NCBI RefSeq assembly: GCF_048403405.1
Contig: NZ_CP183129.1
Direction: 5' to 3' (one strand)
DNA from: Escherichia coli
Lineage (GTDB): Bacteria > Pseudomonadota > Gammaproteobacteria > Enterobacterales > Enterobacteriaceae
DNA length: 64,000 bases
Below, in pieces: positions 10,537-60,136 of this stretch. Made by a program: the position numbers and the translations under genes. Position 1 is the stretch's first letter; each line of letters begins with the position of its first letter. The notes beneath the pieces are model-generated. The model was not told the origin of the DNA and did no database searches. It saw only the letters and a list, made by a program, of their open reading frames with translations.

Positions 10537-10668
10537 GTTAGACCTCAAAGGACTTAAGTCAGACAAATTATGTCCTATCAAGTCATAACCTCGCAAGGTA
10601 TTGTGATCCACGTCACAGGGCAATAGCAAAAAACGCCCGAACCCAAACCGAATAATTGAGGACATCTT

Positions 10669-20698: not shown

Positions 20699-20926
20699 AT
20701 GATCGATCTGGAGAGTCAGGAGCGGGAGGTTATCAATTTAATGTTCAGCCAGGGTATATCCTGGCTAGCCGCCGTGCGTATCAGGCATAAATTATCGCTT
20801 GCTGAAGTAAGTAAAATGTTAGGTATCTCGATTAATTCTCTAAAACGGATCGAAAAGACGGAACGGCTTAGCTCAAACATCAAAAGAAAATGGCAGGAAT
20901 TTATGGTTGTCCACCAGAGTTGCTGA
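20699..20926 (+). CDS. 75-codon XRE-type HTH ORF at the position K-12 yjjJ occupies; possible remnant
   Basis: HTH-like segment LSLAEVSKMLGISINSLKRIE; only 183 bp separate its stop from the deoD stop, so no room for a full yjjJ. Confidence 0.4.
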   Translation: MIDLESQEREVINLMFSQGISWLAAVRIRHKLSLAEVSKMLGISINSLKRIEKTERLSSNIKRKWQEFMVVHQSC

Positions 20927-21109
20927 TATACCCTTACTGGATGACGGCTGAACATAAATGAATAGATTCATGAATGGATTTTATTTTCTATCCATATGAA
21001 AAATAATAGTAAATCTATAAATCAGTCGCTATTGATGAATAGATACTAAAAAGCCGGAGCAGTCTCCCGTTCCGGCTTCACAAGGCAATCGCCTTTCAGC
21101 GAAACACAA

Positions 21110-21908: not shown

Positions 21909-23153
<1,245 letters not shown>

Positions 23154-23183: not shown

Positions 23184-24506
23184 TTATTCACTGATACGAC
23201 GATAGACAGTTGGTGTGCTTTCCGGTGCTTTATCGGCAAGTTTAATTGCCGCTTTCACCGCTTTAGCCGCTTCCTGCCAGCTGTTTTCGTCTTTCGCGTG
23301 GATAACCGCCAGCGGACGCTGACCGTCTACCTGGTCGCCCAGACGCGCCATATCAGTAAAGCCGACGCTGTAATCGATGGTGTCAGATGCCTGACGGCGT
23401 CCGCCGCCCATTGCCACCACTGCCATCCCCAGCGCACGGGTATCCATTTCACTGACAAAACCTTCGGTATCAGCATAGACTGCTTTCGTCAGCATCGCTG
23501 TCGGTAGATACTTCGCGTAGTTCTCAACGAAGTCAGTCGGGCCTTTTTGTGCCGCTACCATACGACCAAAGACTTCTGCCGCTTTACCGTTGTCCAGCAC
23601 CGCCTGCAATTTCGCGCGCGCTTCGGCGTCATCTTTCGCCAGTTTACCGGAGATAAGCATCTCTACGCACAGCGCCATCGTGACATCAAACAGACGCGGG
23701 TTACGATACTCACCCGTCAGGAACTGCACCGCTTCACGAACTTCAACCGCGTTACCTGCACTGGAGGCCAGTACCTGATTCATATCGGTGAGCAGCGCGG
23801 TGGTACGCACGCCAGCGCCGTTAGCTACGCCAACAATCGCTTCGGCAAGGGCTTCAGAAAGTTCGTACGTCGGCATAAACGCGCCGCTACCCACTTTCAC
23901 GTCCATCACCAGCGCATCCAGACCTTCCGCCAGTTTCTTCGCCAGGATCGAGGCAGTGATCAGCGGGATGGAATCCACGGTTGCGGTAATATCACGGGTC
24001 GCGTAGAAACGTTTATCCGCCGGAGCCAGTGAGCTGGTCTGACCGATAATCGCCACGCCGACGTCTTTAATAATTTCGCGGAAACGGTTGTCATCCGGGA
24101 AAATGTCGAAGCCAGGGATGGATTCCAGTTTGTCGAGCGTACCGCCAGTATGACCGAGGCCGCGACCGGAGATCATCGGAATATAGCCGCCGCAGGCAGC
24201 AACCATCGGCCCCAACATCAGCGAAGTGACATCGCCGACGCCGCCGGTGGAATGTTTATCAACAATCGGGCCATTCAGATGCAGGCTTTTCCAGTCGAGA
24301 ACGGTTCCTGAATCTCGCATCGCCATGGTCAGCGAGACACGCTCAGGCATTGTCATATCGTGGAAGAAAATGGTCATCGCGAGGGCGGCAATCTGCCCTT
24401 CGGAGATAGTGTTGTCGCGAATACCGTTGATAAAGAAACGAATTTCTTCATCGCTCAGCGCATGACCATCACGTTTTTTACGAATAATTTCTTGTGCGAG
24501 AAACAA
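23184..24506 (-). CDS. deoA: thymidine phosphorylase DeoA
   Basis: 440 aa from a TTG start ([21 protein letters not shown]...); ORF track extends to 24575. Confidence 0.93.
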
Positions 24507-24583
24507 GGTAACCTCCCGTGGAAAAGAGACGAGGTAATCGGGGAACCGGATGAGCATCGCTGCGTCATCCGGCAAATCAAGCC

Positions 24584-25363
24584 TTAGTAGCTGCTGGCGC
24601 TCTTACCGTCGCCGTGGCCCAGAGCCTTCAGCAGGCTTGCCAGCAGGCTGGAAGCGCCAAAGCGGTAGTGGCGCGCATCGGCCCAGTCAGCGCCGAACAG
24701 TTCATCGGCGATGGCGAGATATTTCTGCGCATCTTCCGCAGTACGCACGCCGCCTGCCGGTTTGAAACCAACGGTTTTTTCTACGCCCATATCACGGATC
24801 ACTTCCATCATGATGCGCGCGCTTTCCGGCGTCGCGTTCACTGCCACTTTACCGGTAGAGGTTTTGATGAAGTCAGCACCCGCTTTGATGGAGATTTCAG
24901 ACGCTTTGCGGATCAGCGCTTCGTCTTTTAGTTCGCCGGTTTCGATGATCACTTTCAGCAGTACATTCGCTGCCGCGCAAGCCTCTTTACAGGCTTTCAC
25001 CAGGTCAAAACCAACCTGCTCGTTACCCGCCATCAGCGCGCGGTACGGGAACACAACGTCAACTTCATCAGCACCGTAGGCGATTGCCGCACGGGTTTCT
25101 GCCAGCGCGATTTCGATGTCGTCGTTACCGTGTGGGAAGTTGGTTACCGTAGCGATACGGATTTCCGGGGTACCCTGCTCTTTCAGCGTTTTGCGAGCAA
25201 TTGGGATAAAGCGAGGATAGATACAGATAGCGGCGGTATTGCCGACCGGAGTTTTGGCCTGATGACACAGAGCAATTACTTTCTCGTCGGTGTCGTCGTC
25301 ATTCAGGGTGGTCAGGTCCATCAATTTCAGTGCACGCAGGCTGCTTGCTTTCAGATCAGTCAT
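24584..25363 (-). CDS. deoC: deoxyribose-phosphate aldolase DeoC
   Basis: 259 aa from [29 protein letters not shown]. Confidence 0.95.
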
Positions 25364-25407
25364 TTCATTCTCCTGGCTTGTAGCCAATAAAATTCACCTT
25401 GCGAGTT

Positions 25408-25423
25408 TGTTAGTATTCTAACA
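25408..25423. promoter_or_regulatory. DeoR operator (promoter-proximal, deoP2)
   Basis: TGTTAGTATTCTAACA near-perfect 16-bp palindrome, 45 bp upstream of deoC start. Confidence 0.75.
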
Positions 25424-25620
25424 TCTACTCCGCAACACACTTCGATATACATCACAATTAAGGAAATCTACTTACAAGTTTGCATCACTGTAATGCGATC
25501 TGGTTCAAATAATTCACTTTCAAATGAATGCGTCAGTGGTGGCAAACGCATCAGGATCAAAGTGAACTTCACGAAACTTCTTACAATGGCGCATCACCTT
25601 CGGCATAAAAGGAAAAGAAG

Positions 25621-27171
25621 ATGCCCACTTCTCATGAAAATGCACTGCAACAACGTTGCCAGCAAATTGTCACCAGCCCGGTGCTTAGCCCGGAGCAGAA
25701 GCGCCATTTTCTGGCGCTGGAAGCAGAAAACAATCTGCCTTATCCGCAGCTTCCTGCCGAAGCCCGCCACGCGCTGGATGAGGGTGTAATCTGCGATATG
25801 CTTGAAGGTCATGCGCCGTACAAACCGCGCTATGTCTTACCCGATTACGCCCGTTTTCTGGCGAACGGTTCCGAATGGCTGGAGCTGGAAGGCGCGAAAG
25901 ATCTTGATGACGCACTCTCTCTGCTGACCATTCTTTACCACCACGTACCGTCGGTCACATCGATGCCGGTCTACCTGGGGCAACTGGATGCGTTGTTGCA
26001 ACCGTATGTTAGAATTCTAACACAAGACGAGATCGATATTCGAATAAAACGTTTCTGGCGTTACCTCGACAGAACCCTGCCAGACGCCTTTATGCACGCC
26101 AATATCGGCCCGTCTGATTCGCCCATTACCCGCGCGATCTTACGTGCAGACGCAGAGTTGAAGCAGGTTTCACCGAACCTGACCTTTATCTACGATCCTG
26201 AAATCACCCCTGATGACCTACTGCTGGAAGTGGCGAAGAACATCTGTGAATGTAGCAAACCGCACATCGCCAACGGTCCGGTGCATGATAAAATTTTCAC
26301 AAAAGGGGGCTACGGGATTGTGAGCTGTTACAACTCACTGCCGCTGGCGGGTGGTGGCAGCACGCTGGTACGCCTTAACCTGAAAGCCATTGCCGAGCGC
26401 AGCGAATCGCTGGATGACTTCTTTGCGCGCACTCTACCGCACTACTGCCAGCAGCAGATCGCCATCATCGATGCGCGGTGTGAATTCCTCTATCAACAAT
26501 CACACTTCTTTGAGAATAGCTTCCTGGTGAAAGAAGGGCTGATTAACCCTGAACGTTTTGTGCCAATGTTTGGCATGTATGGGCTGGCGGAAGCGGTTAA
26601 CTTGCTGTGTGAGAAAGAAGGGATTGCCGCGCGCTACGGTAAAGAAGCCGCCGCAAATGAAGTGGGTTATCGCATCAGCGCGCAACTGGCGGAGTTTGTC
26701 GCCAATACCCCCGTGAAATATGGCTGGCAAAAACGCGCCATGTTACACGCACAGTCGGGGATAAGTTCCGATATCGGCACCACGCCGGGCGCACGTTTGC
26801 CGTATGGCGATGAGCCAGATCCGATCACCCATCTGCAAACTGTCGCCCCGCATCATGCTTATTATTATTCCGGCATCAGCGACATTCTGACACTCGACGA
26901 AACCATCAAACGAAATCCGCAGGCGCTGGTACAGCTTTGCCTCGGTGCCTTTAAAGCCGGAATGCGTGAATTTACCGCCAATGTCAGCGGTAACGATCTG
27001 GTTCGCGTTACTGGTTATATGGTGCGTTTGTCGGATCTGGAAAAATATCGTGCCGAAGGCTCACGTACCAACACCACCTGGCTGGGCGAAGAGGCCGCAC
27101 GCAACACTCGTATTCTGGAACGCCAGCCGCGCGTGATAAGCCATGAACAGCAGATGCGCTTTAGTCAGTAA
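25621..27171 (+). CDS. yjjI: YjjI glycine-radical-enzyme-like protein
   Basis: 516 aa [20 protein letters not shown]...; divergent from deoC; paired with activase gene downstream. Confidence 0.9.
26007..26022. promoter_or_regulatory. DeoR operator (deoP1), lying inside the yjjI coding sequence
   Basis: Perfect palindrome TGTTAGAATTCTAACA; centre-to-centre distance to the 25408 site is 599 bp, matching the recalled O1-O2 spacing. Confidence 0.75.
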
Positions 27172-28006
27172 GATTATCCCCTTCTCCTGCGTTGACGGGC
27201 CAGGCAGTCGTCTGGCTCTGTTTTTGCAGGGCTGCAATCTGCGCTGCAAAAACTGTCACAATCCGTGGACGATGGGACGTTGCAATGACTGCGGGGAGTG
27301 CGTGCCACAGTGTCCGCATCAGGCGTTGCAGATTGTTGACGGCAAAGTGGTGTGGAACGCTGTGGTCTGCGAGCAATGTGATACCTGCCTGAAGATGTGT
27401 CCGCAACATGCCACGCCAATGGCGCAGTCCATGAGCGTGGATGAGATGCTTAGCCATATCCGCAAAGCAGTGCTGTTTATCGAAGGGATAACGGTAAGCG
27501 GCGGCGAAGCCACGACCCAGCTACCGTTTGTGGTGGCGCTGTTTACTGCTATCAAAAATGATCCGCAACTGTGCCATCTCACCTGTCTGGTGGACAGTAA
27601 CGGTATGTTGAGCGAAACCGGCTGGGAAAAATTGCTCCCGGTGTGCGACGGCGCGATGCTCGATCTCAAAGCGTGGGGTAGCGAATGTCATCAACAGTTA
27701 ACCGGACGCGATAATCAGCAGATTAAGCGCAGCATCTATTTGCTGGCAGAGCGCGGCAAGCTGGCGGAACTGCGTTTGCTGGTAATCCCTGGCCAGGTGG
27801 ATTATTTGCAACACATCGAAGAACTGGCGGCGTTTATCAAGGGACTTGGCGATGTTCCGGTACGCCTGAACGCGTTTCATGCCCACGGCGTGTATGGCGA
27901 AGCGCAAAGCTGGCCGAGCGCCACACCGGAAGATGTTGAGCAGTTGGCTGATGCGTTAAAGGTGCGCGGGGTGAGCCGGTTGATATTTCCGGCGCTGTAT
28001 TTGTGA
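27143..28006 (+). CDS. yjjW: glycyl-radical enzyme activating protein YjjW (radical SAM)
   Basis: 287 aa; cysteine-rich ferredoxin-like stretch [15 protein letters not shown] and [12 protein letters not shown]; overlaps yjjI end. Confidence 0.88.
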
Positions 28007-59960: not shown

Positions 59961-60136
59961 AGGACCCGAAAAATGATAATAATTATCATCTACATATCAC
60001 AACGTGCGTGTACGCCATCAAACCACGTCAAATAATCAATTATGACGCAGGTATCGTATTAATTGATCCGCATCAACTTAACGTAAAAACAACTTCAGAC
60101 AATACAAATCAGCAACACAGAATACGGGACAACCTC

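Follow-up and report, generated by a model that had tools for sequence, protein, structure and literature searches.

Operators inside genes that cooperate by looping with an operator at the promoter are familiar from lac, where O2 lies inside lacZ, and from gal, where OI lies inside galE. The deo control region of Escherichia coli resembles both in coupling an operator in coding sequence to a promoter operator through a DNA loop (looping is reviewed in PMC4217526 and PMC8053113), and differs from them in the gene that is used. In lac and gal the intragenic operator lies downstream of the promoter, in a gene that belongs to the regulated operon, whereas at deo it is yjjI, a neighbouring gene of opposite orientation and unrelated function, that contains a full promoter together with its primary operator (P1/O1) and, in addition, the auxiliary operator OE.

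In the published description 599 bp separate the promoters deoP1 and deoP2, which DeoR locks together by looping (PMC3334521); O1 and O2 at these tandem promoters are separated by ~600 bp, with OE ~300 bp further upstream (PMC8053113). The DeoR palindromes are quoted as TGTTAGAA-TACTAACA and TGTTAGAA-TTCTAACA, and the same repressor acts on sites of the same palindrome family at nupG and tsx, two loci outside the DNA analysed here (PMC5326754). DeoR loops have been seen by electron microscopy, a looping of ~72% in vivo is predicted for the natural spacing, and looping is tolerant of distance (PMC8053113); natural looping reaches ~900 bp (PMC4217526). At deoP2, CytR binds between two CRP sites in a CRP-CytR-CRP architecture (PMC3454398). 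Here we compare with this system a 64,000-nucleotide stretch of E. coli chromosome, referred to as the window.

The deoC-yjjI region

The window carries deoD, deoB, deoA and deoC, all annotated by RefSeq on the minus strand, followed by the divergent gene yjjI and its overlapping neighbour yjjW (Table 1). Of 5426 complete E. coli genomes, 5423 contain a match to the interval 25300-26400 at an identity of ≥95%. Compared with K-12 MG1655, the region has the same operator sequences, the same 599- and 279-bp spacings, the same position relative to deoC and yjjI and the same tandem CRP sites; the two differ by 13 single-base changes in 1101 bp, none of which falls in any operator (in MG1655, O2 is at 4617263-278, O1 at 4616664-679 and OE at 4616385-400). 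We therefore consider, with a probability of about 0.95, that this is the regulatory region of E. coli deoCABD with the DeoR operators O1, O2 and OE, an assignment that draws on sequence, position, identity with the published sites and conservation. The system is an already known one, and the locus is a strain-level variant of that in K-12. The repressor gene itself, deoR, maps near 0.88 Mb in K-12 and is hence not expected in the window (PMC8053113). An Rfam search of 24000-28000 at E ≤ 1 gave no match.

Table 1. Features of the deo-yjjI region, in window coordinates
Feature	Position	Strand	Sequence or basis
deoB	21909-23132	-	RefSeq annotation
deoA	23184-24506	-	RefSeq annotation
deoC	24584-25363	-	First gene of deoCABD; RefSeq annotation; Pfam DeoC, E = 5e-49
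DeoR operator O2 at deoP2	25408-25423	-	TGTTAGTATTCTAACA; deo strand TGTTAGAATACTAACA; one mismatch to a perfect palindrome
deoP2 putative extended -10	25415-25423	-	TG-t-TAGAAT within O2; from sequence
deoP2 CRP site 1	25441-25456	-	TGTGATGTATATCGAA on the deo strand; two mismatches to the CRP core; conserved across genera
deoP2 CRP site 2	25494-25509	-	CRP-like; centre 53 bp from that of site 1
yjjI	25621-27171	+	YjjI-like glycyl radical enzyme; Pfam PF11230, E = 8e-220; host frame of O1 and OE
deoP1 leader, part antisense to yjjI codons 1-129	25621-26007	-	Predicted transcript; geometry
DeoR operator O1 at deoP1	26007-26022	-	TGTTAGAATTCTAACA; perfect 16-bp palindrome, no mismatches
deoP1 putative extended -10	26014-26022	-	TG-t-TAGAAT within O1; from sequence
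DeoR operator OE	26286-26301	-	TGATAAAATTTTCACA; 12 of 16 matches; yjjI codons 222-227 (caT GAT AAA ATT TTC ACA)
yjjW	27143-28006	+	Radical-SAM activase (Pfam); start overlaps yjjI

Operators O1 and O2

The initial annotation had described two DeoR operator palindromes 599 bp apart, in the classical O2/O1 spacing, with the distal one 386 bp inside the yjjI frame. All of this is borne out. The start-to-start distance is 599 bp (26007 minus 25408), as published for the promoters, and the layout is that of the published maps. TGTTAGAA-TACTAACA is the O2 of the window read on the deo strand and TGTTAGAA-TTCTAACA is O1, in each case letter for letter. With the RefSeq yjjI annotation, O1 begins 386 nt after the ATG and comprises codons 129-134 (tAT GTT AGA ATT CTA ACA, encoding YVRILT). 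The Pfam YjjI-like domain covers residues 22-504 of YjjI, so that O1 lies within conserved protein whatever start codon is chosen.

A scan of the whole window for sites with up to three mismatches to the palindrome returned O1 and O2 only, against a mean of 0.18 in shuffled sequence. For sites with at most one mismatch, simple arithmetic gives an expectation of ~7e-4 per 64 kb; two are observed, and at this specific spacing, which excludes chance for the O1/O2 pair.

A third operator within yjjI

When the number of allowed mismatches was raised to four, the only further site in the window was OE, which the initial annotation does not mention. It lies 279 bp beyond O1 and 878 bp from O2. We take 279 bp beyond O1 to be the classical OE position. 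This compares with the approximate ~300 bp given in the literature (PMC8053113), and the 878 bp to O2 fits the natural looping range of ~900 bp (PMC4217526). Shuffled sequence yields on average 1.7 sites with up to four mismatches per 64 kb, and OE taken alone is not significant; since a four-mismatch site is in itself unremarkable, the case for OE is carried by its position and its conservation.

Promoters and CRP sites

Read on the deo strand, O1 and O2 both start with TGTTAGAAT, which contains an extended -10 element (TG-t-TAGAAT). The control region would thus comprise two tandem promoters reading leftward on the minus strand, deoP1 with its -10 within O1 and deoP2 with its -10 within O2. 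Transcription from P2 is predicted to start near 25408, if the CRP-like centres upstream of O2, at 25448.5 and 25501.5, are placed at -40.5 and -93.5, which we take to be the classical CRP positions at deoP2. By analogy with P2, and with the published 599-bp promoter spacing, P1 would start near 26007. This would give P1 a leader of ~644 nt, the first ~387 nt of which are antisense to codons 1-129 of yjjI. The initial annotation had called yjjI divergently transcribed, which holds for the deoC and yjjI genes and needs refinement for the promoter, as P1 transcription itself would converge on yjjI and be antisense to its first ~387 nt.

A generic sigma-70 promoter scan called neither P1 nor P2, as is expected for promoters that rely on an extended -10 or on CRP and have a weak -35. 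Its sole promoter-like match, at 26267-26294 on the plus strand (TCGCCA-16-TAAAAT with an upstream TG), overlaps OE in the sense direction of yjjI and is at chance level.

Just upstream of deoP1, at 26045-26060 (TAAAACGTTTCTGGCG, or CGCCAGAAACGTTTTA on the deo strand, ~-38 to -53 of P1), lies the most conserved 16-mer of yjjI, which contains the palindrome AAACGTTT. We considered this block as an UP element, a -35 or a PurR-like box and rejected these readings, since Proteus and Providencia, which have no deoC next to yjjI, conserve it almost as well; it therefore appears to reflect coding constraint on the RIKRFW motif.

Because each of these two operators overlaps the extended -10 of its promoter, DeoR bound there would occlude RNA polymerase and so exclude it from the promoter. 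On the binding and looping properties reported in the literature, one DeoR multimer would hold O1, O2 and OE together, looping out 599 bp and 279 bp, and this bridging would make repression of both promoters cooperative. Deoxyribose-5-phosphate is expected to release DeoR and so derepress the operon (PMC5326754, PMC8053113). As in the literature, deoP2 would have a second layer of control, with two CRP dimers as activators and CytR, bound between the dimers, as an anti-activator. In the window, the block between CRP sites 1 and 2 is conserved in the cross-genus alignment, and a CRP ChIP-seq study of ETEC reports the sequence of site 1 beneath its yjjI/deoC peak (PMC4287617).

The same ETEC data bear on whether the palindromes could be CRP sites, or FNR-type sites, instead of DeoR sites. 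All three operators match the CRP core TGTGA-N6-TCACA with two mismatches, and a CRP ChIP-seq peak falls within yjjI ~544 bp from the deoP2 CRP site, at ~25991, next to O1 (PMC4287617). The motif assigned to that peak by its authors, however, is a different weak site, CGTACCGTCGGTCACA at 25944-25959, the conserved TTAG/CTAA of the operators differ from the CRP consensus at the bases that are most critical to it, and the sequences are exactly those published as DeoR palindromes (PMC5326754). We regard a CRP identity as very improbable; the intragenic ETEC peak might be due to weak binding of CRP or to crosslinks formed through the DeoR loop. Elsewhere in the window, a perfect CRP core (TGTGATCCACGTCACA) is present at 10602-10617, inside ettA by coordinate mapping.

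Conservation of the operators in yjjI

Since O1, OE and all of deoP1 lie inside yjjI on the opposite strand, the same bases would serve as codons and as operator or promoter. To follow both uses, YjjI loci were scanned in one genome per species (80 loci, Escherichia to Providencia). Conservation was measured in a set of 72 genomes spanning Escherichia to Edwardsiella, made up of 70 with an adjacent divergent deoC and two (L010 and L060) that end before the deoC side and were grouped with the 70, adjacency not being judgeable there.

An O1-like site is found at exactly nt +386 of yjjI in 72 of 72 genomes, perfect in 52 and one or two nt off in the others. OE is present at nt +665 in all 72 (identical in 63), and all 69 deoC-adjacent loci examined have an O2-related site. 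O1 and OE are both missing in 9 genomes without an adjacent deoC (Proteus, Providencia and Xenophilus); there the homologous O1 codons read YVG(E/N/S)LT and their third positions vary freely. In Proteus mirabilis the syntenic radA-serB-ytjB abut yjjI directly. Strict conservation of the 599-bp O1-O2 spacing was rejected, as the distance differs between genera, from 567 to 675 bp (mode 601), a variability that is consistent with the published distance tolerance of DeoR looping (PMC8053113).

The third-position entropy of yjjI was calculated over 511 six-codon windows in the 72 genomes (mean 1.137, S.D. 0.281). The two lowest values of the whole gene are those of O1 (0.048) and OE (0.077). The fourth-lowest window is a block that keeps its conservation in the absence of deoC, indicating protein-level constraint, and was used as a control. 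The third-lowest, codons 508-513, is the overlap with yjjW, which amounts to 29 nt (27143-27171); the low variation at this 3' end is consistent with a yjjW ribosome-binding and start region embedded in yjjI.

O1 also uses rare codons, containing one of the two AGA and one of the three CTA codons of yjjI. The least synonymous variation in the gene, together with the absence of the sites where deoC is not adjacent, therefore indicates that the operators constrain the yjjI sequence, including its rare AGA and CTA. These observations also weigh against the view that the palindromes have no regulatory function and arose by chance, from the choice of codons in yjjI and from the A+T-richness of the intergenic DNA. 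That view has in its favour solely the location of O1 and OE in a reading frame; it would have to explain two sites where ~7e-4 are expected, the choice of rare codons, the lowest synonymous variation of yjjI and the absence of the sites from orthologues not beside deoC, and we consider it refuted by these results.

In Hafnia and Edwardsiella the O1 region encodes an intermediate, YVGILT, which gives TGTTGGAATTCTAACA. We infer a path from YVG(E/N)LT, as in Proteus and Providencia, through YVGILT to the YVRILT of Enterobacteriaceae, in the course of which AGA and CTA would have been fixed. O1, OE and deoP1 would accordingly have been carved out of a pre-existing yjjI frame, and the sequence-constraint half of this proposal is supported by the data above.

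That O1 and OE lie inside yjjI is real and already known, and the recovery from raw sequence of one of the founding examples of long-range repression by DNA looping has its value chiefly as a positive control. On dual-use sequence, the conservation analysis contributes the modest point that a promoter and two operators in the coding sequence of a neighbour coincide with the most constrained synonymous positions of yjjI across many genera. The locus is in this respect a clean natural example of regulatory code taking precedence over the choice of codons, and even of amino acids.

Possible consequences for yjjI expression

The other half of the carving proposal is that the overlap may be functional, with DeoR loops and the head-on P1 modulating an FNR-activated yjjI-yjjW unit. 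FNR ChIP-seq data report direct activation of yjjI, with a peak upstream of the gene and without a known transcript start (PMC3688515), so that both units would be active under some conditions. Two blocks conserved across genera lie outside the deoP2 elements, one at 25554-25563 (GGATCAAAGT, with an ATCAA FNR-type half-site) and one at 25581-25587 (TTACAAT). Together they could form the yjjI promoter, TTACAAT being a possible -10, with transcription predicted to start near 25594. A search for the FNR consensus with up to two mismatches at the expected position of the yjjI promoter found none except a match that coincides with CRP site 1; in the window at large, a perfect FNR-type consensus (TTGATCCGCATCAA) occurs at 60063-60076.

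Any effect of P1 or DeoR on yjjI expression is suggested by the geometry. A functional overlap of this kind is a tentative proposal, and the two halves taken together we think rather improbable. Were the overlap functional, deoxynucleoside availability would be coupled to an anaerobic glycyl-radical enzyme without assigned function.

A stronger claim is that O1 and OE mainly regulate yjjI-yjjW, either by a DeoR roadblock or loop or by P1 collision and antisense silencing, and that control of deo is secondary. The same geometry speaks for it, as P1 is aimed head-on at yjjI and its leader would be antisense to codons 1-129 and the 5' end of the gene, and so does the FNR activation just described. 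Against it, each site carries a -10 element on the deo strand, the sites are found only where deoC is adjacent, and the literature assigns them to deo repression (PMC3334521, PMC5326754, PMC8053113), while no effect of DeoR on yjjI was found in the yjjI literature examined. We consider a principal role in yjjI regulation very unlikely, though less so than a CRP identity of the sites. With deo repression retained as the main role of O1 and OE, an influence of DeoR or P1 on yjjI as an added side effect is plausible from the arrangement of the elements. Control of yjjI-yjjW by DeoR or P1, if it occurred, would provide the first regulatory handle on this uncharacterised glycyl radical enzyme.

Variation within E. 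coli

Exact 30-mer counts across the 5426 E. coli genomes are confounded by flank polymorphism, as is evident in sampled genomes, and of these counts only that of the O157/O55:H7 variant is interpretable: in 326 of 5426 complete genomes, belonging to the O157:H7/O55:H7 lineage, O1 reads TGTTATAATTCTAACA, with the change at 26012. With this substitution Arg131 of YjjI becomes Ile, O1 is no longer a perfect palindrome, and the strand that is sense for yjjI gains a consensus extended -10 (TGtTATAAT). Among the loci of the TGTTATAATTCTAACA lineage, yjjI of strain Rafaela_II is annotated as frameshifted.

Three of the 5425 places that match the deoC-yjjI region are on records labelled plasmid. In K-12, hipH (yjjJ) lies downstream of deoD; the strain type of the window has in its place, between lplA and deoD (~20699-20961), a helix-turn-helix pseudogene with a frameshift.
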